IMG/VR virus record: IMGVR_UViG_3300049004_000112 | Coordinates: 1-57,019 of that record | From: a virus | Lineage: Duplodnaviria > Caudoviricetes | Strand: one strand, 5' to 3' | DNA: 57,019 nt | Shown here: piece by piece, positions 23,177-55,020 of the stretch | Layout of the letters: each line of letters opens with the position of its first letter | Numbering within the stretch: position 1 is the stretch's first letter | Notes under the pieces: model-generated | Database searches by the model: none | The model's input: the letters and a program-made list of their open reading frames with translations, nothing else | What the model was told of the DNA's origin: nothing | Position numbers and translations under genes: made by a program

Positions 23177-23200
23177 AGCCTGCGCCAATTGGCGCAGGCT
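23177..23200. repeat. 24-bp palindrome copy 1 (intergenic, after capsid gene)
   Basis: AGCCTGCGCCAATTGGCGCAGGCT. Confidence 0.95.
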
Positions 23201-23209
23201 TCACGATGA

Positions 23210-24226
23210 TTATGTTCGCCTGCCCTTAACGAGTGCCTTCGGCCGCGTACACAGCGACAGTGCGTTCATCTGGCTATCCAGATTGATGCCCTTATCGTTA
23301 TCCATGAGGTACTGTTTCATGTAGATGCGCTGGCCGATGGTATTGACCGTTTCGACATAGTCCGCGGGCGCGAAATAGGTGCGGAATAGGTTCGGAACGC
23401 CGAGCGGGAAGATGTGGCACTTATCGGTGTTGATGAACCCGGTGCCGCCCACGGCACCCCGGTAGTTCTCCCAGACGATGCCGCCGAACTCGAACGAGCC
23501 AAACGACATCCCGTTCATTACATACGCCTTGCGCAATTCGGCAGCAGCCGGATTGTTCAGGAAAGTGGCGCGAACTTCCGGATGCGCCAGCAAAGCGTCG
23601 AAGAACGCATCGCCGCACAGTGCGTGCAGTCCGGAGAAAGGAATACCACCCAGGTTATTCGAGACCTGACGAATGACGGCGGCAACCGCCTTACGCAAAA
23701 CGCCGGGCGCTGGATTCGCAGCGGCCAGATCGAAGTTGATTTCGGCGTCCTGCGCGATCCCGAACGCAGCGAACAGATCGGTCGTTGTCGTGTCGGCATA
23801 GGTGATCACGCCAATAACCGCGCCAATGCGCTGATATTCCAGCGTCACTTCATGGGAGGGCCGATGAATACCGATACGGTCGGCGACCACACCCATCACG
23901 GTCTGGAGTTGATTTTCCGTTCCCCAGGCGCGCACTCCCTGCACCTCATCGGCATAGATAGCGTCGTTGATCTCGAAGTGAGGGACGACGAACGGCCGCG
24001 CGGTCGCCTTGTTCTTGCCGAGCGTGTTGCCGGGGCCGCCGCGTGGCGTCGGCGGGATCAGGATCAGGTTGCCATCCTTTTCCTCCAGCACGATGGTGGT
24101 CGTTGTGACGCCCCGTTCGTTGAAGAGGCCCATTTGACCGAGCCGCCCGGGTGCGAACAGCGGCTTATTGATCGCGTCGGTGAGACTAACCACGCCGAAC
24201 GCATTGTTATTAAAGATGTCCAACAT
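23210..24226 (-). CDS. Major capsid protein (lambda gpE-type)
   Basis: FGVVSLTDAIN...GLF...LIPPTPRGGP...ADEVQGVRA...FAPADY.ETVNT...CTRP. Confidence 0.93.
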   Translation of the reverse strand: MLDIFNNNAFGVVSLTDAINKPLFAPGRLGQMGLFNERGVTTTTIVLEEKDGNLILIPPTPRGGPGNTLGKNKATARPFVVPHFEINDAIYADEVQGVRAWGTENQLQTVMGVVADRIGIHRPSHEVTLEYQRIGAVIGVITYADTTTTDLFAAFGIAQDAEINFDLAAANPAPGVLRKAVAAVIRQVSNNLGGIPFSGLHALCGDAFFDALLAHPEVRATFLNNPAAAELRKAYVMNGMSFGSFEFGGIVWENYRGAVGGTGFINTDKCHIFPLGVPNLFRTYFAPADYVETVNTIGQRIYMKQYLMDNDKGINLDSQMNALSLCTRPKALVKGRRT

Positions 24227-24324
24227 GGTTGGTTGGTCCTTCCGTTTGATTGAGGAACGACGTCAACAAATCGACGCCGCGGGGGAATTAGATGGAATTC
24301 AGTTCGAGAGGCCGATCCGGCTGG

Positions 24325-24990
24325 TTAGCGGATCATGATCATGCGCTTGCGCAGCTGATCGATGGCCTCCGCCTTTTGCGCAGCGGTGATGCCAGCCGGC
24401 CATTCGATGCACTTGCCGTTGACTTCGGCGCCGCGGACGATGGCGGAGATCTTTGTGGTGGTCGCGCCGTCATTGACGATCGGATAGATCGCAATTCCCG
24501 CGGCGTTCTGCGAACCATCCGCGCCGGCCGGATTGAGCGCGCCGTAAGTCAGGTCGGCCGGCGTCTCAATGCCAACACGAACCTTGAAGCTGTCGCCGAC
24601 GATAAAGTCTGCGGCGCCGTCGGCGATCGTCAGCTTGATCTCCTTGTCGAAGGCAACCGCTACGGTCAGCGGGCCGATCTCACGGCCATCCGGCGTTTGA
24701 ACGCTGAAGGTGCCGGCGTTCGCCGCAGCGGCCGTGCAGGTCAACAAGTAGTCGCCATCGACCGCAGCCTGGCTCGTCGCCGGGTTCGCCAGGGTCGCCA
24801 CGCCGTTGCCGGTGTTGGCGCCGATGATGATCGCGGCAGTCTCCGCGGCCACAATCGCCGCCGCACCAAGCACGGTGCCTACTAGGATGGTCTGCGAAAT
24901 GCCGATCAGCACATTTTCACGGGAACCGTGACCGTCCAGCTCGGTAAGGATGAACTCGCCCGGGTGCCGGGCCTCGGTGAAGGTTGTCAT
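24325..24990 (-). CDS. Head decoration protein (gpD-like) with internal insertion
   Basis: SRE....GTVLG...DGSQNAAGI...RGAEV motif. Confidence 0.85.
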   Translation of the reverse strand: MTTFTEARHPGEFILTELDGHGSRENVLIGISQTILVGTVLGAAAIVAAETAAIIIGANTGNGVATLANPATSQAAVDGDYLLTCTAAAANAGTFSVQTPDGREIGPLTVAVAFDKEIKLTIADGAADFIVGDSFKVRVGIETPADLTYGALNPAGADGSQNAAGIAIYPIVNDGATTTKISAIVRGAEVNGKCIEWPAGITAAQKAEAIDQLRKRMIMIR

Positions 24991-25055
24991 GTGTCAGGAT
25001 CCGTTCGTTCGGGGTTGGTGAGAGAAAAATGAATCGCGCGACCGCGCGGGGCGAC

Positions 25056-25523
25056 TTACGAAGCGATTTTCATCCCGCGCTTCGTCATGACCGTGTCCCA
25101 GGCGGCGCCGGTAGCGGCGGCATCCATCTGCTGGCCCGAGTTTTCATCCGCCGCGAGTTTCGGATCCGGCACGGAGCCATCGAGGCGCGACTGCGACTGA
25201 CCCTTTGGGGCGGCCTTGAGCATCGCAACCGCGGCATCGGCGGCCATGTTGCTGTCGAATGCGAGGTGCTGCGCCATGCCTTCGCGGCCCTTGGCTTCAG
25301 CGTGGCACAGGATTGTCTTCGCGCGGACATTGGCAGCGGCAGTCGCATCCGCGCCGATCTTGGTGGCATCGTTGCCGGCTTTTTGCAGGCCGACCTTCTC
25401 GCCCTCCGCAAGCGCCGCGGTGATTGCGCTTGAAAGCGCATCGCGAGACACGGAATCCTTTGCGTCCATGCTCAACCCAGCTGCCGCGTACACGGCCGCA
25501 AGCCCGGTCAATACCGTCGTCAT
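25056..25523 (-). CDS. Capsid scaffold-like protein
   Basis: RAKTILCHAEAKGRE..A..LA...M...AVAML resembles lambda Nu3/C C-terminus. Confidence 0.7.
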   Translation of the reverse strand: MTTVLTGLAAVYAAAGLSMDAKDSVSRDALSSAITAALAEGEKVGLQKAGNDATKIGADATAAANVRAKTILCHAEAKGREGMAQHLAFDSNMAADAAVAMLKAAPKGQSQSRLDGSVPDPKLAADENSGQQMDAAATGAAWDTVMTKRGMKIAS

Positions 25524-25576
25524 GTCAGTCTCCTTTTTTCAGGGTAAGAGGGACGCTGCGGTGCAGGGCCCGGGTG

Positions 25577-26503
25577 TCAACGCATCAGTGAAACGAATTG
25601 CGAAAAGGCTTCCGATGGACGGACCACGCCGTCTGCAATTCCTGCGGCGACCGCGTCAAAACCTCTGAAGCACTCGGCCTCGGTAGCCAGCGCCGCATCC
25701 TTCGTCAGACGCGCGCCGCGGTAGCGGCCAACAGCCGTCGCAAATTGCTCACGTCCGGCATCAAGACGCTTCTGAATGCGCACGGCCGTGTCGTCGGAAA
25801 GCGCCGCGAATGGATTGCCTTCCGCCTTCAACTTGCCCGACGACAACACGGTGACCTTGATGCCGTCTTTCTCGAGCTGCTTGGAGTAGTCGACATGCAT
25901 GGTGACCACGCCGATATTTCCGGCGTTGCCGTTCTCCGGCAGAACGATGTACCGGCACGCCGACGCCAACAGGTACGATGCTGAAAGCGAATTGTCGGTC
26001 AGGATGGCGAGCGTCGGCTTAACCTGCGAGAGCTCGTAGACGGCTTCGGCGAGATCGTAGACGCCGGAGCTGTCGCCGCCGAAACTATCCTGCTCAAACA
26101 CCACACCACGCACTGAATTGGAACTCGCCGCGGCCGCGACCCGGGTTTGCAAGCCCTCATAAGAAGTGCTGCCAGAATATGCGCCGAGGTAGCTTCCTTT
26201 GTGAACCAGCGTCCCCTCGACGGGGATCACAGCGACATTCTCGACCCTGAACAAAGTGTCGTCCGCCGCGTAACCGTTTTGCTGCAATCTCCGCATCAGC
26301 GGATCGCCGAGCCGGCCCATTTCATCGGACGCCCTGCCGTTGGCGAAGGCGACATGATCGATGGGCGCCGCGCCGCCGGACAATTCGACACCGCCGTCGA
26401 CGATCCGGCCGCCGATCCCCATCAGGATCGCGGCGGCCTTGCCGGGGTCAATCATCAACGTCGAATTGAAAACCCGCGCGGCGATCTCGGGACGCAGGAT
26501 CAT
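25577..26503 (-). CDS. Prohead protease, S49 family
   Basis: IPVEGTLV...TSY...DSFGG...SASYLLAS...GNIGV. Confidence 0.9.
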   Translation of the reverse strand: MILRPEIAARVFNSTLMIDPGKAAAILMGIGGRIVDGGVELSGGAAPIDHVAFANGRASDEMGRLGDPLMRRLQQNGYAADDTLFRVENVAVIPVEGTLVHKGSYLGAYSGSTSYEGLQTRVAAAASSNSVRGVVFEQDSFGGDSSGVYDLAEAVYELSQVKPTLAILTDNSLSASYLLASACRYIVLPENGNAGNIGVVTMHVDYSKQLEKDGIKVTVLSSGKLKAEGNPFAALSDDTAVRIQKRLDAGREQFATAVGRYRGARLTKDAALATEAECFRGFDAVAAGIADGVVRPSEAFSQFVSLMR

Positions 26504-31756: not shown

Positions 31757-31983
31757 CGGCGTAGACCGCGACCTGTGGTCATGCGCAGCAACGATAACCG
31801 TGAGCGCGCCTCAAAAGCCGCGTCCTCAATCAGGCTGCGAGCGACGAAACGAAGGTCCTCACGGGCCGGGCCGGAATCACCACGCCCGACAGCCGATGCG
31901 GCGTGCTTCAAGGCAACCTTGCGTTCAGCGCATCGGCACATCGAGGAAAAATCCGAAAAATGGGCCGATTGCGCGGAGGGCAT
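31753..31983 (-). CDS. Small hypothetical protein
   Basis: Stop overlaps the gpZ-like start (ATGA); true start uncertain. Confidence 0.35.
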   Translation of the reverse strand: MPSAQSAHFSDFSSMCRCAERKVALKHAASAVGRGDSGPAREDLRFVARSLIEDAAFEARSRLSLLRMTTGRGLRR

Positions 31984-32072
31984 CCAAACAAGCGGCCCGA
32001 AGTCAAAGGGAGGAAACGCCCAAGGAGGGCAGCGATAGCGCCAAGGCGCTACCGCATACCCTTATGCAAACG

Positions 32073-37305: not shown

Positions 37306-37592
37306 AGCATCCCCAGCGCCTGCATATACGTCTCCAGGATGGTTTCCTGCTCTTGCCGCTCATTGGCGTCCTGTTTGCGCAGGCGCACGATGGTACGCAG
37401 CGCCTTGACGTCGAAGCCATTGCCTTTCGCTTCGGCGTAGACGTCCTTGATGTCATCGGCGATGGTCTTTTTCTCTTCCTCCAATCGCTCGACGCGCTCG
37501 ATGATGGATTTGAGTTGATCCTTGGCGAAGCGGGTTGCGGGCTGTTCGGCAGGCTTGCTGTCAATGCCGGTATTGCTGGCGTGCGGCTGCAT
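37302..37592 (-). CDS. gapR: GapR / DUF2312 nucleoid-associated protein
   Basis: [53 protein letters not shown]...[10 protein letters not shown]. Confidence 0.93.
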
Positions 37593-37651
37593 TGAGCCTC
37601 TCCATAGGTTTTTCGAATTTTGGGGACGCAACAGGACGCAACGAACAGGAA

Positions 37652-38773: not shown

Positions 38774-41700
38774 TCAATCTCCATCATGTCCGTGGGGGGG
38801 GGTATTGACGGCATCGAATGTCGCCAGGTCGAACAGCTGCGGCGTTTCCATCTTCTCTTCTGCCATGCGGTTGTAGTGGATGCCGTCGAGAAAATAGGTC
38901 GCGGACAGTTCGATGTAGACGCCCCGCCGCCCCTTGAGCAATGAACGGTAGGACACGGTGCCGAGCCCGCCGAACGGATCAAGGATGAGGTCGCCCGGAT
39001 TGGAGTATCGCTCGATCAGGCGATCCACGATGTCGAACTGAAGCGGACAGAGGTGCATCTCCGCGCCCTTGCGCTGCTGCAGCATGTTCAGCGTGCGCAT
39101 CCGGTTGATGTCGGTCCACACGTCGGGATGGTGCGAGCCAGGCGCGATGGCCATGAAGGTAGCGGGTAGCGTGCCGGTCCGCTCCAGAGCTTCGCCGATT
39201 TTGACATGCGCTTCGTGGTTATAGATGCGCTGGGCACTGGTCTTGGAAAACAATTTGGCGAGGTCAGCGGAAGAGCATTGCGCGAACTCTTCGGGCCTGA
39301 GGTGCCGGTCGCCGCTCGATGGCCAAAAATCATGGGCGACGATCTGCCAACGTGCGCGGGATACGCCATCGTTCTCGCCATCCCATTTTTCCTTGGTGAC
39401 TGGCACGTCGGCATAGCCGCGCGACCGGTCGCTCTGAGGCTTGCGCAGCAGCAGAATGTATTCCGGCATGCCGACACCCATTTTGGTGCCGTCCTTGCAC
39501 ATCTCGCTCCAGCCGAGCCGATAGGTCTGGTTGTTCTCTCGCACGACGTCGGTGACAACGGTGACCATGCCGCAGTAGTCAAACCCGTGGGCGCGGTAGT
39601 GCATGATCGCTTCGGCGTGGAAGGGCGAGACGGTCGGCACGCCGGCGCCGGTGACCGATCCGAACAGCACGCGGTCCTTGACGTGAATGCAGGCCAGCCG
39701 GCCGGGCTTCAGCATCCGGAGCAAATGGACCGTCAAGAAATCCATCTGACTCCAGAAGTGACCGGAATCGTCGCTGTGGCCGAAGTCTTCATAGCGCGCG
39801 GAATATTCGTATTGATTGCCGAAGGGGATTGACGTGATGATCTGATCGACGGAGTTGTCCGGCCAATCTCGGCATTCGGCGACCGCGTCGTTATTGATCG
39901 CGACGAAGTTCTTGCCCCTGATCTCAACCCGCTTGACGCCCAGTGTGCGCAACAGCGCATCGCGCATCGGTAGGGCGTTAAGGCCGTGCTTCAGGATGAT
40001 GTCCGACATGCGGGCGCGCATCGCGGTATCCAGCGCCCACTTTTCCTCCAGCGCGGCGCGCCCGGCGCGCATGTCTTCGGAATAGATGATGTCGACCTCG
40101 ACCGGGAACTGCTGCCCGAACCTTTGCAGGCGATAGATCGATTGAATGAAGTCGTTGAACTTGTAGCCGTCGCCGGGCATGCCGACGTAGATCGCCTTGT
40201 GGCAGTGATACTGGAAATTCGAGCCGGAGCCGGACAGAATCGGCTTGGTGCCGAAATACTTGATCCGGCCTTCCTCAAATTCGTGCAGGCGGATTTCCCG
40301 ATCGTCGATATCCATGCTGCCGGTGATGGTGACGACCTCCGGCAGGGCCTGCTCGATCGCTTCGCGTTCCGCTTCCAGGTCATGCCAGATGATCCGATGC
40401 GGCTCTGGATCCTGCGCGATGATATCGACCATCTTGGCGATACGGGACGACAGGCTGTCGCGCCGCGACTTCGCAGCATCCTGCAGGCTGTTGGCGACGT
40501 TGCGGAACATGACGCCCTGTCCGTCGCGCTCCGGTACGGCCTTGGAGTGGTCCGAGGGCACCTCGTGCCAGGTGAGTTTCAGCGGCGGCAGTTCGTAACC
40601 TTCGTCGGAATAGCCGAGCTCGGATGGGCGCTGCAGGAACGCCGCCCACGAGTGCACCCACATCCAGAATTCTTCTTCCTTGTGCGGGTAGAGCGTGAGG
40701 TCGCCGGCCTTTTCCGAATTGCGCTGGAACCAGCGCGTCAATGCAAGCCCGGTATCCATCACGCCAAGGAAGCCGCCATAATGGATCAGTTCCTTGTAGC
40801 GGTTCGGCGAAGGCGTTGCGGTCGCGACCAGCTTGAACTCGACCTTGAGAAACAGGGGCAAGAATTCCTGAAAGGTCTTTGAGCCATAGCTGCGCAGCAC
40901 GCTCGCTTCATCGAGACTGCAGGCCGCGAACAGGTTCGGATCGAGCTTGCCCTCGCGGATGGATTCATAGTTCGTCAGGAAGTGGACAACGCCTTCCGCG
41001 CTCAGCGCGGAAAACTCCGCGTTGGTCCGGATGAAGCGCACGTCCATGCCGAGCTGCAGAGATTCCTTGATGAAGCCGTGGCGCACGCCCAGGGGAACGA
41101 CGTTCAGCGTCGCGCCGCCGACGTTCTTGTGCAGCTGCCTGCACCATTCCAGCTGCATCGCGGTCTTGTGCAGGCCGAAATTGGCGAAGATCGCAGCGCA
41201 TCCGAGCCGAAGGGCCCAGAGCGTCAGGTCCTTGCAGTGCGGCTTCAGCCAGGGATGCAGCCCGTCGCGCGCGACTTCGATCCCCCGCAATGGTGCCGTG
41301 ACGATCTTGTCCTTGAGGAAGGCGTCATAGGATGGCCATTCGATGGAGAGGTCGTCGTCATCGGAAAGGATAGTCTCGGTATTACCGATTTTATCCGGTG
41401 CGCACGCTTCGCACCTCACATCGGCAACGGAGCCTGCGCCAATTGGCGCAGCCTGTTGCAGCAGCAACGCGTTGCCGGCTTCCGTCAGAGATAACCGCTT
41501 AGTAGTCGCATGCACCAAGTCTTTGCGCGCAAGATCGAGCAGGACCGGCCCTTCGACCTGTTCGCCGGCTGCAATTGCGCGCAGCGCTGAAATGGTTGAG
41601 CCCGCGCCTTCGGGGGGCGCGTCAGGCGCGGGCTCTCTCTCGCGCAGATGATGGGGCGAAGCGCCATCTGCGGGATACGGCGCAGAAGTTAGCCCTCCGG

Positions 41701-42391
41701 CGCCGGGTTGGATTGGATTGCCTCTGCCGTCGACCCTCTCCGGCAGATGGTCGAACTTCTGCCAGTGCGCCTCGATCGCGGCGTCCATGCGCTCGAATCC
41801 GGCGCTGCCATAAGGATACGAGAAACTATCGCCGCAGCTGCAGGTGCCGAGCGTGACCATCTTCTTGTTGATGACCGGATTGGTCATGGAGAACGTGTGG
41901 CCGGCCGGATAGACCTTGCGCGCGCGATGCGCGGCGACCAGTTCGGCGACGATGGGATCACTGATCGGCTGATCAATATTAGCTAATACATCGGAGGGAA
42001 CAGAGGCTTGCTCGGCCGGCTGCAACAGCGACTTTGCCCAACGGATCACCTGGCCGCCAAAGTCTGCGGTCCAATGCGTGCCGTCACCCTCTCCGTTGCC
42101 CATGTAGCGCTGGGCGCGGATAACCATCTCATCGGATGCATCGGTCAAGGCGTCTTCGCGGGAAACGAAGAACACGGGGATAGCGACCCGGAAGCCAGGC
42201 GGGTGTGCCATCCACTTGCCGTTTTCCAGTTCCAGCACGCCGATCTTGATCGAAGGCTGCCGGTCGCGATCGAAATAGAACATCTCGCCCTGGTCGTCGC
42301 GGAAGGTTAAGCCTTGAGGTCCAAGCGGAGGCTCGCCGGCGGCGTTGCGGAGGACCGGGGTTGCGGGTGTGGTACGGGCGGGAGCGTTCAT
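38774..42391 (-). CDS. SF2 helicase-like / N4-N6 DNA methyltransferase fusion with long N-terminal extension
   Basis: FGLHKT, LDEAS, TATPSPN, RLQRFGQ; MTase TSIPF (motif IV) and DPFGGLGT (motif I), beta-class order. Confidence 0.88.
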   Translation of the reverse strand: MNAPARTTPATPVLRNAAGEPPLGPQGLTFRDDQGEMFYFDRDRQPSIKIGVLELENGKWMAHPPGFRVAIPVFFVSREDALTDASDEMVIRAQRYMGNGEGDGTHWTADFGGQVIRWAKSLLQPAEQASVPSDVLANIDQPISDPIVAELVAAHRARKVYPAGHTFSMTNPVINKKMVTLGTCSCGDSFSYPYGSAGFERMDAAIEAHWQKFDHLPERVDGRGNPIQPGAGGLTSAPYPADGASPHHLREREPAPDAPPEGAGSTISALRAIAAGEQVEGPVLLDLARKDLVHATTKRLSLTEAGNALLLQQAAPIGAGSVADVRCEACAPDKIGNTETILSDDDDLSIEWPSYDAFLKDKIVTAPLRGIEVARDGLHPWLKPHCKDLTLWALRLGCAAIFANFGLHKTAMQLEWCRQLHKNVGGATLNVVPLGVRHGFIKESLQLGMDVRFIRTNAEFSALSAEGVVHFLTNYESIREGKLDPNLFAACSLDEASVLRSYGSKTFQEFLPLFLKVEFKLVATATPSPNRYKELIHYGGFLGVMDTGLALTRWFQRNSEKAGDLTLYPHKEEEFWMWVHSWAAFLQRPSELGYSDEGYELPPLKLTWHEVPSDHSKAVPERDGQGVMFRNVANSLQDAAKSRRDSLSSRIAKMVDIIAQDPEPHRIIWHDLEAEREAIEQALPEVVTITGSMDIDDREIRLHEFEEGRIKYFGTKPILSGSGSNFQYHCHKAIYVGMPGDGYKFNDFIQSIYRLQRFGQQFPVEVDIIYSEDMRAGRAALEEKWALDTAMRARMSDIILKHGLNALPMRDALLRTLGVKRVEIRGKNFVAINNDAVAECRDWPDNSVDQIITSIPFGNQYEYSARYEDFGHSDDSGHFWSQMDFLTVHLLRMLKPGRLACIHVKDRVLFGSVTGAGVPTVSPFHAEAIMHYRAHGFDYCGMVTVVTDVVRENNQTYRLGWSEMCKDGTKMGVGMPEYILLLRKPQSDRSRGYADVPVTKEKWDGENDGVSRARWQIVAHDFWPSSGDRHLRPEEFAQCSSADLAKLFSKTSAQRIYNHEAHVKIGEALERTGTLPATFMAIAPGSHHPDVWTDINRMRTLNMLQQRKGAEMHLCPLQFDIVDRLIERYSNPGDLILDPFGGLGTVSYRSLLKGRRGVYIELSATYFLDGIHYNRMAEEKMETPQLFDLATFDAVNTPPHGHDGD
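41431..41454. repeat. 24-bp palindrome copy 2 (one mismatch; inside helicase-MTase gene)
   Basis: AGCCTGCGCCAATTGGCGCAGCCT. Confidence 0.9.
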
Positions 42392-42630
42392 GGCGCGCTC
42401 CGTGGCAACGGCCTGCCGACGCGCAGCATAATCAGATCAGCTAGATCGCTGAGGTATCCGTCGCCGTATTCAGCACGCCCATAGTCCGCCGCAACGCCAA
42501 TGACGACGCCAACAGCGCCGTCGATTGCCATTCCTTTTGCGAGCGCGTCGTGGATGGCATCCGATACTGCATTCGCAAGATCAGCGGGAAGCTGTCCGGT
42601 CACTGTGACGACTTCGGATTTGTGCGTCAT
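42388..42630 (-). CDS. Hypothetical protein
   Basis: Coupled ORF within the operon. Confidence 0.55.
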   Translation of the reverse strand: MTHKSEVVTVTGQLPADLANAVSDAIHDALAKGMAIDGAVGVVIGVAADYGRAEYGDGYLSDLADLIMLRVGRPLPRSAP

Positions 42631-43133
42631 GACATCGGCCCCGTCGCAAGCGAAACCGACCGCACGCCGTCACCCTGCCCCGCGCGTTGATCCAGCGCGC
42701 TACGGCCCGGCAGCGGATCGCCGAAGAACTCCGCCGTGATGCTGCGATGCTGCGGGGAGGTGTCGCGGATTTGCTTGGCGAGCTCGGTTGCGCTTTGACG
42801 TATGATGCGCTGGTGCGGGGCCTTGGGCACAGCGCCTGCGGCTGTTCGTTTCAGAAGATTGTATTGCACCTTGCACGCGCGATCGGTGCGCTTGATGCGT
42901 GCGCCTATGTCGCCCCAGGGCTCGCCCTTGTCGCCGGCCTCGATCAGGGCCCCGTTTTCATCGTCACTCCAGCGCTCGCCCTTCCGGTTGCCCCGCGCTT
43001 CGGAACGCAGCCTGCCGTAACGCTTCACGACGGCGCCTTCGCTCAGGCCTAGCGCATCGGCGATCTGGCGGTTGGTTTTCCCCGCTTCCTTCATAACGAG
43101 CAGCGTGGCGTCGTCTTCGGGGTGCCTGTTCAT
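42627..43133 (-). CDS. GcrA-like / tandem Myb-like HTH protein
   Basis: EDDATLL.MKEAGKTNRQIADALGLSEGAV; second repeat RWSDDENGAL...WGDIG..IKRT..ACK. Confidence 0.6.
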   Translation of the reverse strand: MNRHPEDDATLLVMKEAGKTNRQIADALGLSEGAVVKRYGRLRSEARGNRKGERWSDDENGALIEAGDKGEPWGDIGARIKRTDRACKVQYNLLKRTAAGAVPKAPHQRIIRQSATELAKQIRDTSPQHRSITAEFFGDPLPGRSALDQRAGQGDGVRSVSLATGPMS

Positions 43134-43276
43134 GCAAACCTCCGACGCAACGCCTTGATGCAGACCGAAACCTTGTCGAAGATCGTCAAGCAGATCATGC
43201 CGACGATCGAAAAGATGAGGACTCCACAGAAGGTGACGGCGAACAGGACGGCCAAAGCAACGAGGACGATTGTCAT
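43130..43276 (-). CDS. Small membrane protein
   Basis: MTIVLVALAVLFAVTFCGVLIFSIVGM; ATGA overlaps at both ends. Confidence 0.55.
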   Translation of the reverse strand: MTIVLVALAVLFAVTFCGVLIFSIVGMICLTIFDKVSVCIKALRRRFA

Positions 43277-45331
43277 TCCGCCGCCTCCATGAACTGAGGC
43301 GCGGGCTCTACATCGCGCGGGGCGTAGTTTGCTTTGACCAGCGCAGCCGCCATCGGCGGGCAGACGCTGTTGCCGCATTTGGAGACCTGTTCGGTCTTGG
43401 AGATCGGCGTGCCGTCCGGCTTGCGATCGATGATGTAGCTGTCGGGGAAGCCTTGAGCGCGGAACAGTTCGCGCGGCGTAAGCATGCGCATGCCGATGTC
43501 GACAATGATGCAAATGATGCCGTCGATATTGACGGTAACGAATTCGCGGTCATCCCAGAGGCCATGAGCGCGGAGAAGATCAGCAACCAGGCGCGCGCGC
43601 GGTGCGTATTCAGGAAGGAAAGGCGGGATTTCCAGCTGCGCTGTGCCAAGGCCGAAGCGGCCCTTGGACGTTACAGTGTGCAGCGGCTCATCGAGACGGG
43701 GATCCTGATCGGCCCCGTAGTATTTCTGCAGGAAGGCGGCGGATAGTTGCGACTTGTTACCGCCTCCACCATTAGCCGGCATGACCGTCGGTGCAGGCTC
43801 TTCGACGCTTGAACCGACCGCAGTCCCGAACTGCCTTACCAGATTGACTGCGGCGACGCCCTGATGCGATCCGGATTGCAGGATGGTGCTTACCGGCTCG
43901 TCTACGGGACGGCCCGCGTTGCCCTCGCCAGTGCGGCCGTCGATATTGTTCTGCGCAAGAAACGCCGCCACCAAAGCATGATGGCCGCCGGTCGTGATGG
44001 TCTTTACCGGCTCATCGGCGCCGTAGTGCGGCTTGTCGCCGAAGTTGTTTTTGACCAGGGACGCGGCGACCACGCCCAGAGGTGCCGCGCCGCCCGCGCG
44101 CTTGATAAACGAATTCGCCGTGACCGTCGGCGCAGGTTCGTCCATTCCGCTGCCTATGCTGTTTGCGCGGAATTTCGTTAGGTGAACCGCGGCGACCTGG
44201 TTCTGATCCTTTGGCGATGCGGTAACGGTATGGAGCGGACCGTCGACCGAACGCACGCTACCGCCCTGCTGCGCGGCGCTAATGAACGGCGTCACGACGA
44301 CACTGTCTGCCTTGGCAGTCAGCGTCTGCACAGGTTCGCTGACGCTGCGCGGTTCGGTTTGCCCCATCCGGCCGCCGACGCCAGTCACGAACGGTGTCAC
44401 AAGCGCCTTCTCGCCGCGATGCGCGCCGGTAACCGTGGCCATCGGATCGTCGATTGATTCCGCGCGGTCGCCGCCATGATGCGTCAGGTTGACGATGAAC
44501 GGCTTTTGCCGCATCGACCACATAGCGCCGGACTCCCTTGGCCAGCCGTGCCATCGTTGCCTTTTGCAACGGCCGCACGGCCCGCAGTCCGTACTTTTCC
44601 TTGATCTGTTTGGCCGTGTCGAAAATCGACGGACACGGCAGCGACCAGTCGATGATTTCCGCGGCGACACGCGCGGGCTTCACGTCAGGAACAAGGGCCG
44701 AGCCTAACTTTTCTACGTCTGCCCTGCCATCGCGATAAGCCTTCACCCGTTTGTGCGTCGGCACCGGCCATACAATCGGTTCGCCGTCACAACGCGCGAT
44801 AAGGAACAACCGCTTGCGCAGTGTCGGCGCGCCGTAGTCGCAGGCACGCAGCTCGCGCCACTCGACGACGTAGCCGAGCCGTTCCAGTTCGGAAAGCCAG
44901 CGCTTGAAGGTGAGGCCCTTCTGCAGCGGGCACGGCTTGTTGTCGGCGCCGAGCGGTCCCCAGGTCGCGAACTCTTCGACGTTTTCGAGGATGATGACGC
45001 GTGGGGCAACGACGTTGGCCCAATGCACGACAACCCATGCCAGCCCGCGTATTTTCTTCTCTACCGGCTTGCCACCCTTCGCTTTTGAAAAGTGCTTGCA
45101 GTCCGGGGAAAACCAGGCGAGCCCGACCGGGCGGCCGGCCGTCACTTCAACAGGGTCGACTTCCCAGACATCGGATACTAGATGCGTGGTTGCGGGATGA
45201 TTGACCTCGTGCATCGCAAGCGCGGTCGCGTCATGGTTGATCGCGATGTCCGGCGAGCGGCCGAGCGCCATCTCGATGCCGGTTGAGGCACCGCCGCCGC
45301 CCGCGAAGCTGTCGACGATCAATTCGATCAT
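43273..45331 (-). pseudogene. C5-cytosine DNA methyltransferase, frameshifted at about 44504-44507 (real or assembly error)
   Basis: FAGGGG, SPDCKHFS, ENV, R.R motifs in one frame; MRMLTPRELFRAQGFP and GNSV in another; removing one A restores ...DAAKPFIV... Confidence 0.85.
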
Positions 45332-45730
45332 GCGCGTCCGCCCTTCTGCGGGTAGACGGACGGCACCGCTGCTGATACGTCTGCTACGCCCTTCAAATCG
45401 TTGCGCCAGGAAATAGGCAGTCTTGCTGAGTTGAGTTTCGACATACGGGAACATCTGTTCGAGCGTTGCGTCGGCTGGCCGCGTGCTGGCGATGAAGTCG
45501 CAGATCATGTTCGCGCACACCGCGGCGAGCGCGTCGGAGATCAGCTCGTTGTCGGTATTGCGGTTGGTTTCGACGGCCAACTGCCGCGTAAACGCATGCT
45601 GCACGGCCGTGCCCATCCGCGCTTGCGCGCCGTCGCTGTCGTTTTGCAGGGCGATCTCGGCTGTCGCTGCTTTTGCGCGCGCGATCATCGCCTCAATCTC
45701 TGCCATGTCGACGTGAACCGGCTTCGTCAT
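45328..45730 (-). CDS. Hypothetical protein, apparently fused to the MTase by a frameshift near 45390
   Basis: Alternative frame ends ...PQKGGRA* with ATGA overlap on the MTase start. Confidence 0.5.
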
Positions 45731-45912
45731 CGCGCGAACTCCACATCTTCCCGCGCAGGCTTGACGCCATGGCTTCGCGCTACCGCTTCATTGACGTAGT
45801 TGCCGGGGGTGATCTCCACCATCAGCGTTGCGCCGCGCCAGTAGGACTGGCCGGGTTTGAAGCCTTTGGCCCGGGCTTGTTCGATCTGCTTGTGCTGGTC
45901 GTCGGCGTTCAT
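45727..45912 (-). CDS. Small hypothetical protein
   Basis: Coupled ORF. Confidence 0.55.
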   Translation of the reverse strand: MNADDQHKQIEQARAKGFKPGQSYWRGATLMVEITPGNYVNEAVARSHGVKPAREDVEFAR

Positions 45913-46436
45913 CGCGCACTCGCTGGTTTGCGCTTGCGGGCACGGTCGAATTTTTCGCCCTCTGCGATGATGAGAGCGGCGGCGCGCACAAGATCACGCC
46001 TGAAACCGGCCGGTTTCCACCATTCCCACGCCCAAGGCCAACGGGCTGGAATGTCGCTTGCCGATCGTCCCGGCAGACCGGCGCGGTCAGCGTAGCATCC
46101 GCCGGCAATGGCGAGTTCGCCGACCGGGTGTTGATCGTCATGCTCGATTGACCAACCTTCCGCCTCGATCTGCCGGAAGCGTTCGGCGATCACAGCCTGC
46201 GCAAATGCAGACATTGGCCGGCGGATATGCAGCGCCTCGAATACACGCCGCAGCACGAACTGCCGCAACAGCGACACGACCGTCATGATCGCGGCAAAGG
46301 CCACGTTCATCTCGATCGGGATGTTGACGCCGAGCAGGACGGGCAGCACCAACCACTGCACGAATAGCGAGAGGAAGAAGCCGGCCAAGGTTGACAGCGT
46401 GGTTTCGAGTGCGGACATCCAACGGGATTGTTTCAT
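45909..46436 (-). CDS. Two-domain phage protein (2-TM domain + AER.RQ...HDD...WPW domain)
   Basis: QSRWMSALE...RRVFE membrane module fused to a widespread phage domain. Confidence 0.7.
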   Translation of the reverse strand: MKQSRWMSALETTLSTLAGFFLSLFVQWLVLPVLLGVNIPIEMNVAFAAIMTVVSLLRQFVLRRVFEALHIRRPMSAFAQAVIAERFRQIEAEGWSIEHDDQHPVGELAIAGGCYADRAGLPGRSASDIPARWPWAWEWWKPAGFRRDLVRAAALIIAEGEKFDRARKRKPASAR

Positions 46437-46729
46437 GCCGCCGCTCCCTCGCGCTTGACCGATCCGATCTCGACGCTCTTGCCGGTCGGTGTCAGGTCTT
46501 TTTCGCGGACCAAATACTGTTCCAAGTCGAGTTCATTGAGCAGGAGGTAGGTAACGACGACGCCAGGGATTGCGCCGAGAACGGCCGCCTCGTGCGGTAA
46601 GCCTTCAAGGCGCTTGCAGCGACGTACCAGCACCACTTCACCGCGCTGAAACAGCGCGTCGGGGCATGGCGGGGCTTCGCCGCGGGAGACGGCTTCGATC
46701 TGGAGCTCAAGTGTTCGCGATAGGTTCAT
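46433..46729 (-). CDS. Hypothetical protein
   Basis: Coupled ORF. Confidence 0.5.
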   Translation of the reverse strand: MNLSRTLELQIEAVSRGEAPPCPDALFQRGEVVLVRRCKRLEGLPHEAAVLGAIPGVVVTYLLLNELDLEQYLVREKDLTPTGKSVEIGSVKREGAAA

Positions 46730-48054
46730 TCTGCGGCCTCCGCAGTTTCGATCCCGCGCTTCGCGACCGGCCGCTGCGTAAACCGCTTCGCATCATCCGG
46801 GCGCGTCAAGGCCTCGCGGCAACCAGGCGGTATCCAGAACGGCGCGCGCGGCGCTTCGCCCTTGATCCAGACCAGCCAGATGTAGGCCGTGGCAGTGCCG
46901 CCCTCAGGATCCCATCGGCCCTTGCAGAGATTGACGCGCTCGGCGAAGAACGCGATCAGCGTCGGTGGATTGTCCCGGAAGATGCGCTCATAGCGGCCGA
47001 TGGTTTCCAGCCATTGCAGGCGGACGAACATCGCAACGCCGACGCGCGCGCGCTGCAGGGCCTGCAGTACGAAGGCTTCGCTCTTGTCGCCGAACGGCGG
47101 GTTGGTGACGATAAAGTCCCGATCGGTATGAGCGCTGGCCTCAAGGCCGTTGGTGAAATCAAGCACGGCATCGCCATAGCGGTAATCGAAAACGTCGGTT
47201 GCCAGAACGTCGCTGCTATATTCGCGCAGCACTTCGGCCATGTGGCCTTCGCCGCACGCCGGCTCCCACGCCGAGTGCTCGGCAAAAAGCATCGGGGCCG
47301 GCAGGAGCCCAAGTTCCGGATTATCCAGCACCCGCTCGATCAGCGCCCGCGTTGCCCATGGCGGCGTCGGGAAGAAATCGAGACTGTCGTCCGGCTCTTG
47401 CCGCGACGACATGATGGCGCGGTTGCCGTTCGGCAGCGCCTTTTCCAGCGCGGCCGGCTGTTCGGCTTGCGGCAGGCGCGCGATCTTTTCGGCTACCGAG
47501 ACCGCGATCTTGTCTGTCTCGACCGCTTGCTGAAGTTCGGCCGTACCCTTTTCCTGTACGGTCGTCGCGCGCTGCACACTGCGCCGGCCGACATTCATCA
47601 GGTCAGCCGCTTCTGTCTGCGATACGATCGCTGCCGTGCCTTCGCAGGCCGGCGGCGCGATATCGATAAAACCCATCGAGCCTGCGCCAATTGGCGCAGG
47701 CTGCGAATGCTGGTTGTCACCCAACCGCATCGTCGAAAGCTTTGCCGCGACCATTGCGCGCTGGCTTTCCGTCAGATGCCGGCGCTTCAGGTTCTTCGAG
47801 ATTACCCAGCTCAGAGCCTCGCGCTCGGAGCCCTCGAAAATCTCCGTGCGCACGCCAAGGTTCTTCCGCCCGCATGCCGTGTAGCGGTTGCGGCCATCCA
47901 GCACCATGCCGCGATGCAGCTTGACGGTTTCCACCTGGCCATTGGCGCGGATGTCTTCCGCCAGATCGTCGAGTTCTGAATCCGACAGCATCGGAAACAG
48001 GTTCGCCAGCGGATGGAATTTCAAGGGCGCGTGGCCAGGCGGGAGGAACGTCAT
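46726..48054 (-). CDS. ParB-like domain + HTH + adenine DNA methyltransferase fusion
   Basis: HPLANLFP...LAEDI..NG...LDGRNR...SKNLKRRHL (ParB fold); SQTEAADLMNVGRRSVQRA (HTH); DFFPTP, WEPACGEG, TNPPF (MTase). Confidence 0.88.
   Translation of the reverse strand: MTFLPPGHAPLKFHPLANLFPMLSDSELDDLAEDIRANGQVETVKLHRGMVLDGRNRYTACGRKNLGVRTEIFEGSEREALSWVISKNLKRRHLTESQRAMVAAKLSTMRLGDNQHSQPAPIGAGSMGFIDIAPPACEGTAAIVSQTEAADLMNVGRRSVQRATTVQEKGTAELQQAVETDKIAVSVAEKIARLPQAEQPAALEKALPNGNRAIMSSRQEPDDSLDFFPTPPWATRALIERVLDNPELGLLPAPMLFAEHSAWEPACGEGHMAEVLREYSSDVLATDVFDYRYGDAVLDFTNGLEASAHTDRDFIVTNPPFGDKSEAFVLQALQRARVGVAMFVRLQWLETIGRYERIFRDNPPTLIAFFAERVNLCKGRWDPEGGTATAYIWLVWIKGEAPRAPFWIPPGCREALTRPDDAKRFTQRPVAKRGIETAEAAE
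47679..47702. repeat. 24-bp palindrome copy 3 (inside ParB-MTase gene)
   Basis: AGCCTGCGCCAATTGGCGCAGGCT. Confidence 0.95.
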
Positions 48055-51242: not shown

Positions 51243-51278
51243 AATGCACAGCTTGGCCGTCCCTGCCATCCTACCGGC

Positions 51279-51643: not shown

Positions 51644-51693
51644 GTTTCCCGTGAAACAAGAATCACGGGAACGGTCCAGTGGCCAGCACACGA

Positions 51694-52476
51694 TCAATCC
51701 AGCGGGCATTCCTTGGCGAGATCGGCGAAGGCCGCGCGTGCGCCAGATGTCTTGAAGATGCTGGTGCGGCTCACCCCTTGAGCATTTTCGATCCGGACCG
51801 CCGCTTCCCGGCCCTCCTGCATCGCCTTCACCGTCGATTTGTCAGTAACGACCTGAATCACGCGGTTGTCGATCGCAACGCCAGCCGTTTCCAAAACGGG
51901 CTCCAGGTCGACGCGGAACTTCAACTTGAATGCCTCTCCGGTCTGCAACGGCTTCTGGTCGGGACCGGCCTCGATCATCGCAATCGTCAGCTTTTTTTGA
52001 ATGCAGCGGACCGCCAGCGCAATGCCTTGGTCGAAAGCCACGGCGACAAAACTTCCGCCGTCTCCGAAACGGTCCCGCTTCGCGGAAACCATCCATCTGC
52101 CGATCATCCGGTCCTCATAGTCGGTCGGCCCCGGCGCGGCTTCCGCTCGCGCGGGTTGCTGCTGCGGTGCCGCGGGCTTGATAGCGGTTTCAGTGCGCGG
52201 GGTTTCGAGTGGTGCAGGCGGAGGCTTAGGCGCGGCCACGGGCGCGGGCTGGGTCGGCTTCGGCTGCGCTTGCTGGCGCAGCTTGCGATTGCGGCTGGCG
52301 GTGTCGGCATCGAGCACCTGACAATCCGTCATCATCGCGGGAAATTTGCCCGTCGCGCGGATTTCCCGGCCCTGCGGGCACTCATCCTCTCCGATGCGAT
52401 AGCCGCGTCGGGGATCCTGCGCCAAAGCGTTTGTTGCGGCGCACAGCAGGCCCGCCGCGATGACAAGTCGTTTCAT
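51694..52476 (-). CDS. Secreted/periplasmic moron protein
   Basis: Signal peptide MKRLVIAAGLLCAATNALA; Pro-rich linker; beta-rich C-terminal domain with paired Cys; GGGGGAGGG RBS. Confidence 0.75.
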   Translation of the reverse strand: MKRLVIAAGLLCAATNALAQDPRRGYRIGEDECPQGREIRATGKFPAMMTDCQVLDADTASRNRKLRQQAQPKPTQPAPVAAPKPPPAPLETPRTETAIKPAAPQQQPARAEAAPGPTDYEDRMIGRWMVSAKRDRFGDGGSFVAVAFDQGIALAVRCIQKKLTIAMIEAGPDQKPLQTGEAFKLKFRVDLEPVLETAGVAIDNRVIQVVTDKSTVKAMQEGREAAVRIENAQGVSRTSIFKTSGARAAFADLAKECPLD

Positions 52477-52573
52477 CTAGCCCTCCCCCCGCCTTAGCTT
52501 GGTCGCATCCTGCCACTGGCACAACCTTAATTCCAGCGTCCACCCACGAAACAACCTCACGGGAATCAGTTCA

Positions 52574-53005
52574 ATGGCCCTCCGGGACGCCGTAACCGAC
52601 AAGATGGTGAAGGCCGGGCGCGCCGCGTCGCATAAGCACGGCGCCAGTGCCATGCGAGAGATTTACACGGCGATGATGCTGGCGGCGCCCGGCCCGCGCC
52701 CGGGGCATGAAGCGCGCCTAGTCTACGAGACTTGCTGGCATGCCCCGGGCTACCGGGATATGCGCATCATCACGCGCGATCCGAGAACCGGAAACACCTA
52801 CGAGCTCGACCTGAGACCGGCCGACGTCCAGCGCGTCATCTACGATTGCGCCGACGCCGCCAAACAAATCAACAACCATCCTCCGCTCGACTGGGATCAG
52901 TATCGCACGACCATCCATTGGCCGAGCGTCGTCACGTGGATGGCCGGGCCTCCGGCCGCAAAGGATTCAACCGAAACAGTAACCGGAGTTAGTTGCAATG
53001 CGTAA
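52574..53005 (+). CDS. Hypothetical early protein
   Basis: First ORF of the rightward operon; VTDKMVKAG...IYTAMM.AAP motif. Confidence 0.6.
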   Translation: MALRDAVTDKMVKAGRAASHKHGASAMREIYTAMMLAAPGPRPGHEARLVYETCWHAPGYRDMRIITRDPRTGNTYELDLRPADVQRVIYDCADAAKQINNHPPLDWDQYRTTIHWPSVVTWMAGPPAAKDSTETVTGVSCNA

Positions 53006-53438
53006 GCTCTCGGAAATCACCACCTCCATCCTGCCGCCGGCGCCTGCAGGGCGCAGCTATCCCCGCCGACCGGTGAAGGCCTTCTACGCAGGCATTACCT
53101 GCCTGGCGCTGGTCAATCATCAGGAGAGCGCAAGCAAAAAGGCCCTGTACGTCTCCGACGACGGCGATGTCTTGAACGCGGTCTGGGTGCCCAAGGCCTT
53201 GCTCGGGCTGGATAAGAAAGACCGGGGCAGGTTTCTGGTCGCGACCGTATCGAAGGCCTTCGCGGACCGGAAGCAACTCGACTTCGGACGCTTCAAGGCC
53301 GAGTGGGCAGAGCGGCTTTTGCCCGATGAACGCGCGCAATTCGACGACGCCCAGCAAGTCGCAAAACTCTCACGGCAACGGTTTCGCGGCGATGCCACGT
53401 CGCGGCTGTCGCATTTCGGAAGGAACGAATTCGCATGA
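52998..53438 (+). CDS. Hypothetical early protein
   Basis: Coupled ORF; KKALYVSDDG...VWVPK motif. Confidence 0.65.
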   Translation: MRKLSEITTSILPPAPAGRSYPRRPVKAFYAGITCLALVNHQESASKKALYVSDDGDVLNAVWVPKALLGLDKKDRGRFLVATVSKAFADRKQLDFGRFKAEWAERLLPDERAQFDDAQQVAKLSRQRFRGDATSRLSHFGRNEFA

Positions 53439-53737
53439 GCGAAGAATTCGACGGCGCCCGCGAGCCGATGCGCGCGCTGCGCGATCTGATCAACGCCTGC
53501 GAAGGCATCTTCGGCGACGACAACGGCGAACAGGCCATCCTCTCACGCGCACAGGCGGGCTTTGACAGCCTTCGCAAGCTGTTCGGCGATACCCGGCTGG
53601 CCGAAGATACAGCCCACGGGCCGATGATTGAGCCGACGGCAACCGTCCTTTTCATACCCGGCACCATCGATCTAGCAGAGCTCCAGCGAATAAAAGTAAC
53701 TTTCAAAGCCACCCTTCAACGTTTGCAGGTTGGCTGA
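53435..53737 (+). CDS. Hypothetical early protein
   Basis: ATGA-coupled. Confidence 0.55.
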   Translation: MSEEFDGAREPMRALRDLINACEGIFGDDNGEQAILSRAQAGFDSLRKLFGDTRLAEDTAHGPMIEPTATVLFIPGTIDLAELQRIKVTFKATLQRLQVG

Positions 53738-53954
53738 CATGGGCTTCCATCGCATCCCGCAACCTGCAGCCCTCGATCGCGCCAGCCTCACGGCCGTGGT
53801 CGCCAACCTCCTGGCCGAAGAGGTTGCGTTTCTCACCCACACGGCGGACCCGTTCCTAATCGACCACGACTGCCTTAACCCGGCTGGCCATGATCCCATC
53901 GCAACCTGCAGGGACATCGTCTGTTGCCATTGCGCGAAGGTGTTCTTGAAATGA
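53730..53954 (+). CDS. Small Cys/His-rich protein
   Basis: HDCLNPAGH...CCHC. Confidence 0.55.
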   Translation: MADMGFHRIPQPAALDRASLTAVVANLLAEEVAFLTHTADPFLIDHDCLNPAGHDPIATCRDIVCCHCAKVFLK

Positions 53955-54196
53955 GCCGCGCCCCTCACCTTTGGCTGATCGATAGCCCGCTATTCGATAA
54001 TCAATCGCCACGCCTCGCAATGGTCGAGCAGATGGCCAACGCGCTGGTGCGCGAGCAGGCCATGGACATCGAGAGCGATGCGATCCGCAGCCTGCACGGG
54101 GCCGGTTTTCAGATGGCCGATATCGTCATGTGCATCGACGACGCCCGCCAGGCGGCGATGCAGCACATCGTGGCGAGGGAGATGGCAAAGCTGTGA
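53951..54196 (+). CDS. Hypothetical early protein
   Basis: ATGA-coupled. Confidence 0.6.
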   Translation: MSRAPHLWLIDSPLFDNQSPRLAMVEQMANALVREQAMDIESDAIRSLHGAGFQMADIVMCIDDARQAAMQHIVAREMAKL

Positions 54197-54360
54197 GAGA
54201 TCGCAAGGGCGATAAGTCCAAACAGCCGCCAGAATGCAATATCGAACTCGAAAACCATTGCCCTCACATCAAGGAAACGGGAGGCGGGATGCGAGGCGAA
54301 CAATACGAGTGTGACGTTTGCGGCGAGCGGTTTTTCCTCGCTTACGAGGAAATGCGATGA
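54193..54360 (+). CDS. Small Zn-ribbon protein
   Basis: CPH...YECDVCG; GTGA-coupled. Confidence 0.5.
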   Translation: MRDRKGDKSKQPPECNIELENHCPHIKETGGGMRGEQYECDVCGERFFLAYEEMR

Positions 54361-54812
54361 TCCTGCCCCGCCCGCAACGCCTCTCCCATCACGCGCCGCC
54401 CGGCTCGCTGCTGAAGCGCTTCGACGCGCCGACGCCACGGATAGATGCCCGGGTTAAAACCGGGCATGCGGAGCGTGATCCTGACTACCTCAGCATGGTC
54501 CGCCAGTGCCCCTGCCTCAAATGCGGCATGGAGCCTTCAGAAGCCGCCCACGTCAGGTACGCCTGCGCCTCGTTCGGCAAGGCCTCAGGGTTGGCCAAGA
54601 AACCCGACGACCGCTTCGCGCTTCCCTTGTGCTCGGGCTGTCACCGCCTCGATCGCGACGCGCAGCATAACCGCGGCGAGAAGCTGTTCTGGATTCAGCT
54701 TGGCATCAACCCGCTGATCACTTGCGGAAAGCTGTACGCGCAGCGCGGCGACATGGTCGCGATGCGGGCTGTGATTTTTTCGGCGATTGCAGAGAGAGGA
54801 CACCCGTCATGA
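54357..54812 (+). CDS. DUF968-like HNH-fold protein
   Basis: YL..VRQCPCLKCG...AAHV...KPDDRFALPLC..CH...QH. Confidence 0.8.
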   Translation: MILPRPQRLSHHAPPGSLLKRFDAPTPRIDARVKTGHAERDPDYLSMVRQCPCLKCGMEPSEAAHVRYACASFGKASGLAKKPDDRFALPLCSGCHRLDRDAQHNRGEKLFWIQLGINPLITCGKLYAQRGDMVAMRAVIFSAIAERGHPS

Positions 54813-54997
54813 CCACAGCACAGCGCCGCTGGTTGCGGAAAGCCGCGGACTTGAAACCGGGCGAGTATCTGACGTGGGGCACCAGGTCGAACGCCGGCGG
54901 CGCGATCCACCGAATGTTGGACGAGATGAAGGCCCAGGGTTGGCTGAAAGGCCCGCCTTGGCGGATCGCAGCCGGTGGCCGCAAAGCGCTGAAATGA
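54809..54997 (+). CDS. Small hypothetical protein (wHTH-like)
   Basis: ATGA-coupled; MTTAQRRWL...GRKAL. Confidence 0.55.
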   Translation: MTTAQRRWLRKAADLKPGEYLTWGTRSNAGGAIHRMLDEMKAQGWLKGPPWRIAAGGRKALK

Positions 54998-55020
54998 GCC
55001 TGCGCCAATTGGCGCAGGCT
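54997..55020. repeat. 24-bp palindrome copy 4 (intergenic, early operon)
   Basis: AGCCTGCGCCAATTGGCGCAGGCT. Confidence 0.95.

Follow-up and report, generated by a model that had tools for sequence, protein, structure and literature searches.

Our analysis of the viral DNA stretch IMGVR_UViG_3300049004_000112 (Caudoviricetes; 57,019 nt, hereafter 'the window'), a complete 57-kb provirus record classed as integrated provirus, suggests that the 24-bp palindrome AGCCTGCGCCAATTGGCGCAGGCT, which occurs there in four copies, probably provides parS-like docking sites on double-stranded DNA for a protein that the phage itself encodes. [quoted passage not shown] The proposal draws on comparison of sequences and on structure models, and it has to be weighed against several observations that fit it poorly.

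As stated in an earlier note made from the letters of this DNA alone, three of the copies are perfect, one has a single mismatch, and the base preceding each of them on the plus strand is G (4/4); in 100 dinucleotide-preserving shuffles, 0 matches to the 24-mer were encountered, even when up to 3 mismatches were allowed. Copy 1 is located 9 nt past the stop codon of the major capsid gene and 20 nt from the next ATG, and its orthologues in related phages are perfect in records G001 and G003 and exhibit 3 mismatches in G004. Copies 2 and 3 are in frame within genes, and the APIGAGS peptide that the note had read from both is indeed seen: copy 2 encodes AAPIGAGS (approximately residues 313–320 of a helicase-methyltransferase of 1205 amino acids (aa)) and copy 3 encodes PAPIGAGS (residues 119–126 of the 442-aa ParB-methyltransferase). 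Of 10 homologous helicase-methyltransferase genes, 9 have the slot of copy 2 filled, among them that of G020 with the variant A' introduced below, and in G036 it is occupied by variant A''. Copy 4 ends 17 nt before the next ATG (55037), and a similar copy is found in G004 at the end of a 98-aa open reading frame (ORF).

A survey of the window and 19 further motif-bearing records (20 in total), in which sites were accepted within 2 mismatches of the 16-bp core and genes were called only roughly, yields 51 sites, 43 of them perfect. In diverged phages these sites recur in the same slots, namely the linkers of the ParB-methyltransferase and of the helicase-methyltransferase, the 3' flank of the capsid gene, the terminal codons of a 660–711-aa protein and the start of a SNF2 helicase gene. 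Within the clade of the window, the number of copies per genome amounts to 4 in the window itself, 6 in G013, 5 in G014, 4–5 in G017, 5 in G019 and 4 in G012, and there is a weak trend towards even spacing of the sites (Fisher P 0.016 over 9 related genomes). The 24-mer is present in 4 other viral contigs, and its 18-bp core in 25 stretches on 19 contigs; among deposited phages, no close relative of the window phage was found (3 weak matches).

The architecture of the proposed reader resembles that of the ParB family over its N-terminal half. An AlphaFold2 (AF2) model of residues 1–220, with a mean predicted local distance difference test (pLDDT) score of 87.2, consists of an N-domain, a low-confidence linker and a helical domain (helices 146–152 and 157–169); the sole segment with pLDDT <50 is 116–124, which overlaps the peptide encoded by the palindrome. 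A Foldseek search with this model returned 25 matches in the PDB at E ≤1e-3, the best of which are Spo0J (1vz0), Noc (7nfu, and 7ol9 with its binding-site DNA), CTPgS-bound ParB (7bnr) and KorB (8qa8/8qa9), and since the fold alignments span 190–240 columns of the 220-residue model, both the N-domain and the HTH are covered. A profile of 63 homologues likewise matches Noc, Spo0J and ParB chains with E-values of 1e-5 to 3e-3 (Noc and Spo0J at 1e-5) and pairs iLDGRNRyra with IIAGERRWRA. The motifs DGRNR and NxxRR, invariant in the 63 sequences, align with Box II (GERRWRA) and Box III (ENLQREELT) of Noc; the residues kept are the G and the second R and, in Box III, N and R. The homologue in G001 matches the Pfam family PF17762 (HTH_ParB) with an E-value of 0.0023, i.e., weaker than the cut-off. 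As modelled, the protein is composed of a ParB/Srx-type N-terminal fold with a ParB-type HTH directly after it.

The C-terminal dimerisation domain of the ParB family is not present; residues 215–442 are predicted to fold as a methyltransferase core instead (pLDDT 83.7, predicted template modelling (pTM) score 0.85). The 108 fold matches at E ≤1e-3 include the type I M subunits 3ufb and 7eew, M.BseCI (7qw7) and M.TaqI (1aqi), and target-normalised template modelling (TM) scores of 0.21–0.37 against these proteins indicate that the catalytic core alone is matched. The NPPF motif (N104, P105, P106, F107) is invariant in 30 sequences, and searches with this domain gave no matches in Pfam, NCBIfam or PDB sequences. 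At ~228 aa, the modelled domain is too small to include its own target-recognition domain. Neither of the ParA-type ATPase profiles PF13614 and PF01656 has a match in the 57-kb record, while 14 of 14 control genomes were matched; judged from its genes, the window phage has no ParABS partition partner.

That the gene carries its own site, as had been claimed for the window, turns out to be a rule across the family. A search of viral contigs yielded 385 N-module relatives, the best 80 of which we used together with 19 from a second query (99 loci). The DGRxR...RRHL anchor is contained in 93 of these loci, and removal of 15 whose sequence in the vicinity of the anchor was identical left 78. Within the 180 nt following RRHL (the linker window), 63 of these 78 loci possess a perfect palindrome of at least 12 bp, compared with 164 of 1906 control windows taken from the same loci (8.6%), and for perfect palindromes of at least 20 bp the respective numbers are 21/78 and 1/1906. 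The centre of the linker palindrome is located 68–100 nt past RRHL in 59 of the 63, and 17 distinct central 12-mers are represented. The central 4 nt are AATT in 55/63, a self-complementary centre being what is expected if a dimer sits on duplex DNA. The complete phage G023 has a linker palindrome of 26 bp, which is the sole perfect palindrome of at least 16 bp in 54 kb.

Furthermore, the sequence of the palindrome co-varies with that of the putative recognition helix. Using 63 sequences (the window and 62 of the 99 loci, with near-duplicates thinned by hand), 48 of which have a palindrome of at least 12 bp, we computed, for sliding windows of 9 residues across the alignment, the correlation between protein distance and the distance of the half-sites. 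Of the 170 windows, the nine with the highest values all fall within residues 150–166, with the peak at GRRSVQRAT (rho 0.52), that is, similar half-sites accompany similar recognition helices. Since windows nearer to the palindrome in the gene reach a rho of only ~0.1, the peak on the recognition helix is not accounted for by physical linkage. The class of the palindrome tracks the HTH, and not the type of N-domain or the methyltransferase family (MT-A70, Dam, N6_N4 or NPPF type). Whole sets of sites switch together with the helix: variant A, TGCGCCAATTGGCGCA, goes with the helix RRSVQRA, variant A', TGCGCAAATTTGCGCA, with RRS(V/L)QSA (5/5 sites in G028 and 3/3 in G020), and variant A'', TGGGCAAATTTGCCCA, with HRSVKSA (4/4 sites in G036), and no mixing of A, A' and A'' within one genome was observed in 25 genomes. 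The co-variation of palindrome and HTH for which the earlier note had proposed to look is thus encountered both as a peak on the recognition helix and as concerted switching of site sets. That the ParB-HTH reader has a cognate palindromic site appears well supported by this comparative evidence.

We propose that a dimer of the protein would read the two half-sites (AGSS-TGCGCC-AA) via the recognition helix of the HTH (residues 157–169). With one site placed inside the gene of the reader, in the part encoding the disordered linker, reader and site would be inherited together when phage modules recombine, and in the clade of the window extra copies would have been placed at tolerant spots (gene ends, protein linkers), providing 4–6 entry points per ~55-kb genome. 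Docking would bring a methyltransferase core devoid of its own target-recognition domain onto phage DNA, where the protein might then either spread in the manner of the ParB, Noc and KorB clamps or act near the sites, and phage DNA would be marked in cis. What we infer for the window protein is that it binds the sites physically, behaves as a nucleotide-gated clamp and methylates in cis, and the purpose of the marking would probably be protection from restriction.

Several observations weigh against this proposal. The linker palindrome is single-copy in ~20 other records, so that dispersal is not general; the repetition within each homologous phage which the earlier note had proposed to look for is mostly not seen. 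The linker palindrome is absent in 15 of the 78 homologues, and the counts obtained for this set do not represent independent events, many homologues being related to each other. At 18 of the 78 loci the ParB-HTH module is devoid of a methyltransferase according to a crude motif test. The Glu of Box II (GERRxRA) is replaced by Arg, and nucleotide handling may therefore differ from that of ParB. When entire domains are compared in a Mantel-type test, HTH and N-domain are only weakly separated (partial rho 0.20 vs 0.14). The main contradiction, however, is posed by G001, G004 and G005, which have one ParB-HTH each, of class D (single-copy palindrome, CACGTG-centred), and yet carry 2–3 sites of class A each. 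With 1 of 112 core positions changed, and with flanks that are 73–90% identical to those of class-A phages or unalignable, these sites are kept without a class-A reader in cis. Likewise, G002, G003 and G015 have sites and no ParB-HTH in the fragment (42–59% complete). The earlier interpretation hence holds in part: the pairing of the palindrome with the ParB-HTH module is supported, but class-A sites also coexist with an HTH of another class, and sites are mostly single-copy.

The orphan sites of these six records speak for a different reader at the dispersed sites, that is, a protein of the host, of a co-resident prophage or another one of the phage, with the linker palindrome of the ParB gene being a separate matter or just a tolerated location. 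We consider this fairly unlikely, because (i) the switching of entire A, A' and A'' sets, without mixing, parallels the recognition helix of the ParB protein, (ii) the strongest co-variation peak falls on that same helix, and (iii) no second ParB-HTH or class-A-like HTH was found in G001, G004 and G005 (tblastn E ≤10, motif search, hidden Markov model (HMM) search E ≤0.01). Moreover, G004 and G005 have 2.6 kb of 26.9 kb in common, and the longest common block is the ParB gene. This gene thus appears to move horizontally between phages, and the orphan sites may lag behind a recent swap of the reader, which would offer a possible reconciliation. The N-terminal extension of the helicase-methyltransferase was considered as a reader and rejected: of 9 homologues with the site, only 3 contain its winged-helix-like stretch, and the distance between stretch and site varies.

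Alternatively, the palindromes might be functional as RNA or single-stranded DNA hairpins that punctuate transcripts, stabilise 3' ends or are sites of processing, e.g., after the capsid gene. Contrary to what was claimed earlier, a loop is available: a single strand of the palindrome can fold into a stable 10-bp stem with an AAUU loop (minimum free energy −24 to −29 kcal/mol for 58-nt stretches; z-scores −2.1 to −4.3). Also, 27 of the 51 sites are outside called genes or at most 12 codons from a gene end, and one copy directly follows the major capsid gene. The single match in a bacterial genome, on a Larkinella contig (L016, 779–802; 51% G+C, no ParB-HTH nearby), is terminator-like in that TTTTGTTTTT, with a T run, follows the 24-mer; this copy looks like an ordinary terminator hairpin sharing the sequence by happenstance. 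In the window, however, none of the 4 copies is followed by a T run, a terminator scan found nothing at copy 1, and an Rfam search gave no family at the palindrome sites; as had been surmised, the copies fall outside the definition of an intrinsic terminator, a stem-loop being possible but the U tract being absent. A hairpin loop does not require the self-complementary centre so frequently seen in the linkers, the outer positions vary without pairing being kept (e.g., AGGC...GGCG), and 24 of the 51 copies are well inside genes. In addition, neither identical sequence across copies and phages nor co-variation with a protein helix is expected for an element under selection for structure only, and we regard hairpins as a decidedly unlikely explanation.

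The palindromes might also represent small mobile elements (of the repetitive extragenic palindromic (REP) or Rickettsia palindromic element (RPE) type) or recombination linkers which have entered tolerant places without disturbing the reading frame and which mark the junctions of modules. Copies are indeed found in frame in linkers and at gene junctions, and nucleotide homology between related phages ends at the edge of the palindrome (G003 14639–14662; window 23177–23200 and 41431–41454): G003 has a replaced capsid gene (33% amino-acid identity) next to a gene that is 76% identical, and in the helicase-methyltransferase the N-terminal extension varies among phages from the palindrome on. Nonetheless, the exact 24-mer occurs only once, in the unrelated Larkinella context, in 185,579 species genomes, a search which the host's own chromosome lies outside; within these genomes the motif is thus not the host-wide repeat considered in the earlier note. 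Among 80 metagenome loci with the 16-bp core, only 2 have more than one copy; the metagenomes gave at least 120 matches to the 16-mer, which is estimated to be near chance level for the size of the collection, and only their contexts were used. Since orthologous slots are occupied in diverged phages, and co-variation with the HTH helix is not expected of a mobile repeat, this explanation is very unlikely.

Finally, the view that the peptide APIGAG is what is conserved, as a short linear motif common to several proteins, would account for the frame shared by 33 of the 34 copies in called genes, but has hardly any probability, given that 17 of the 51 copies are not in called genes, that all APIGA peptides (28/28 in the 20 records) are encoded by the identical 15 nt GCGCCAATTGGCGCA and by no other 15 nt in these records, that variants A' and A'' encode AQICA and GQICP, with other frames in some slots, and that the encoded segment has pLDDT <50. 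The codons involved are rare (usage of CCA 10%, ATT 15%, GCA 11%), and the probability of this coding given the peptide is 4.6e-4. Across homologues the dyad is distributed over the reading frames as 31, 31 and 1, so that, with two frames being equally used, the encoded peptides differ. The idea of a peptide motif was rejected on account of the single 15-nt encoding and the two frames; the sequences compared indicate that the conserved feature is the DNA, not the peptide.

Docking sites for the phage's own ParB-HTH-methyltransferase would have counterparts in several known systems. In B. subtilis, parS is located within spo0J, and a few HTH residues switch the specificity between parS and the Noc-binding sites (NBS). 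With ParB–parS systems (Spo0J, 1vz0; Caulobacter ParB, 6t1f/7bm8; Myxococcus ParB, 7bnr), the window protein and its proposed sites share (i) the N-domain fold followed by an HTH, (ii) a cognate site that is a spacer-less palindrome with a 16-bp core, and (iii) a copy inside the gene of the reader. They differ in that the window phage is devoid of ParA, that a methyltransferase core replaces the C-terminal dimerisation domain, that Arg occupies the Glu position of Box II, and that a disordered linker of ~35 residues separates N-domain and HTH. Noc with its NBS sites (7ol9, 7nfu, 7ng0) provides the best profile match (E 1e-5) and ranks among the top fold matches, and represents a ParB paralogue with changed site specificity; unlike the window protein, it acts in cell division as a chromosomal, membrane-tethering factor, possesses many sites and is not fused to an enzyme. 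KorB and the OB operators of plasmid RK2 (8qa8, 8qa9) likewise combine a ParB-family protein with a short palindrome that is scattered over a mobile element and not clustered. KorB, portrayed as a sliding clamp in PMC11790492, is a repressor and partition protein acting with KorA, TrbA and IncC, whereas the cargo of the window reader is an enzyme, with no partner identified. Dispersed sites of the ParB family are known from N15, RK2 and pSM19035, according to a passage of PMC3235114 that cites Ravin and Lane 1999 for N15. As described there, N15 is a temperate phage (linear prophage) with several ParB-family centromere-like sites scattered through its genome; in contrast to the window record, an integrated provirus without ParA, it is a plasmid prophage with SopA/SopB partition.

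Fusions of the same architecture class as the window protein are treated in a 2025 survey (PMC12704722), which describes phage ParB-CTPase-fold fusions to N6_N4, MT-A70 and other methyltransferases as prophage-enriched and leaves their function open, 'perhaps in anti-defense'; the passages concerned name no DNA sites for the fusions, and the main text contains 0 occurrences of 'palindrom'. A further parallel is offered by phage thymidine dioxygenases, which, as a passage of PMC13229309 puts it, are ParB-dependent, the notion that ParB 'directs' modification to loci being quoted there as unconfirmed. In these systems a phage ParB homologue likewise supports a DNA-modifying enzyme, but as described in that passage these ParBs are separate proteins without an obvious DNA-binding domain, while the window protein contains an HTH and has the enzyme fused to it. 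A full-text literature search revealed no paper describing docking sites for ParB-methyltransferase fusions.

Table 1. Palindrome copies, domains of the proposed reader, and associated genes in the window (57,019 nt).
Feature	Position	Strand	Remarks
Palindrome copy 1	23177-23200	.	perfect; between major capsid gene and next gene
Palindrome copy 2	41431-41454	.	1 mismatch, at an outer position; in frame, disordered-looking linker of helicase-methyltransferase
Palindrome copy 3	47679-47702	.	perfect; in frame, linker of ParB-HTH-methyltransferase gene, residues 118-126
Palindrome copy 4	54997-55020	.	perfect; first base = last base of stop codon of ORF 54722-54997
ParB-HTH-methyltransferase gene (P0001), 442 aa, proposed reader	46726-48054	-	phrog_799 E 4e-79; phrog_4715 (ParB-like) E 5e-15
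ParB/Srx-type N-domain (predicted), residues 1-108	47731-48054	-	invariant D53 G54 R55 N56 R57 and N88, R91, R92
Disordered linker (predicted), residues 109-145	47620-47730	-	pLDDT <50 at residues 116-124
ParB-type HTH DNA-binding domain (predicted), residues 146-218	47401-47619	-	model, fold search
Recognition helix (putative), residues 157-169, RRSVQRATTVQEK	47548-47586	-	best palindrome predictor across homologues
N6-adenine-type DNA methyltransferase catalytic core (predicted), residues 215-442	46729-47412	-	invariant NPPF; without separate target-recognition domain
Major capsid protein gene	23210-24226	-	Phage_cap_E
Helicase / N6_N4 methyltransferase gene, 1205 aa	38774-42391	-	hosts copy 2
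91-aa ORF with stop codon overlapping copy 4	54722-54997	+	no family match

Two variants of the linker palindrome deserve mention in their own right. In G009 (~37547–37602; locus L070), it is extended to a perfect palindrome of 56 bp around the same 16-bp core, and a second palindrome with an 11-of-12 arm is located 90 bp away in the same gene. The loci L163, L177 and L194 are ParB-HTH relatives without a methyltransferase motif, in which the C-terminus looks like a coiled coil and the linker palindromes are CCCGGG-centred; these are the only adenine-free centres seen, and the centre contains A/T at all of the methyltransferase-fused loci with a palindrome (48/48). Since the three CCCGGG loci belong to one lineage and the domain call was made by the crude motif test, methylation inside the centre of the palindrome is to be taken as a lead only.

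Apart from the palindromes, the minus strand of the window contains four methyltransferase-type genes within 9 kb (38774–48054), comprising the helicase/N6_N4 fusion, a split gene of C5 type and the ParB-fused gene of N6-adenine type, and this cluster is a heavy investment in DNA modification. At 43273–45730 of the same strand, the ORFs 44279–45730 and 43273–44670 are in different frames, overlap by ~390 nt and match consecutive parts of one DNA methyltransferase profile (phrog_116, 779 positions); as the two matches abut in one frame in G001, a frameshift may have split the C5-methyltransferase gene of the window. The plus-strand ORF 54318–54812, located just upstream of copy 4, is HNH-endonuclease-like or DUF968-like (phrog_131, E 3e-9; PF06147, E 4e-6, just below cut-off). 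At 31947–32037 on the minus strand, a full-length match to Rfam family RF00519 (suhB / mmgR small RNA) scores 53.7 bits against a gathering score of 41. Of the 14 control genomes, Caulobacter vibrioides is the only one with a match to this family, a hint at an alphaproteobacterial host.

It is tempting to go one step further, although we advance the following only tentatively and hold it to be rather doubtful as a whole. The ParB-HTH-methyltransferases might be nucleotide-gated sliding enzymes which load only at a palindrome carried by the phage, with one copy in their own gene, and which methylate along the DNA, so that the phage would modify its own genome selectively and fast. The cassette of palindrome and helix would then evolve and be exchanged as a unit, giving rise to groups with a private specificity (A, A', A'', B, C, D, etc.), much as plasmids fall into incompatibility groups, and 4–6 copies would extend the coverage genome-wide.

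Fusions of the ParB fold with methyltransferases are common in phages and prophages, and our analysis provides (i) candidate DNA targets for them, (ii) a rule for finding such candidate sites, that is, in the linker of the gene itself, ~70–100 nt past the RRHL motif, and (iii) a first recognition code in which residues of the HTH helix are linked to bases of the half-site. Taken together, these make the open role of the fusions directly testable. If the proposal proves true, the principle by which ParB proteins load at a site would be extended from the segregation and silencing of DNA to the targeting of an enzyme, and the combination of site and reader within one gene would represent a way of staying matched through the modular recombination of phages.

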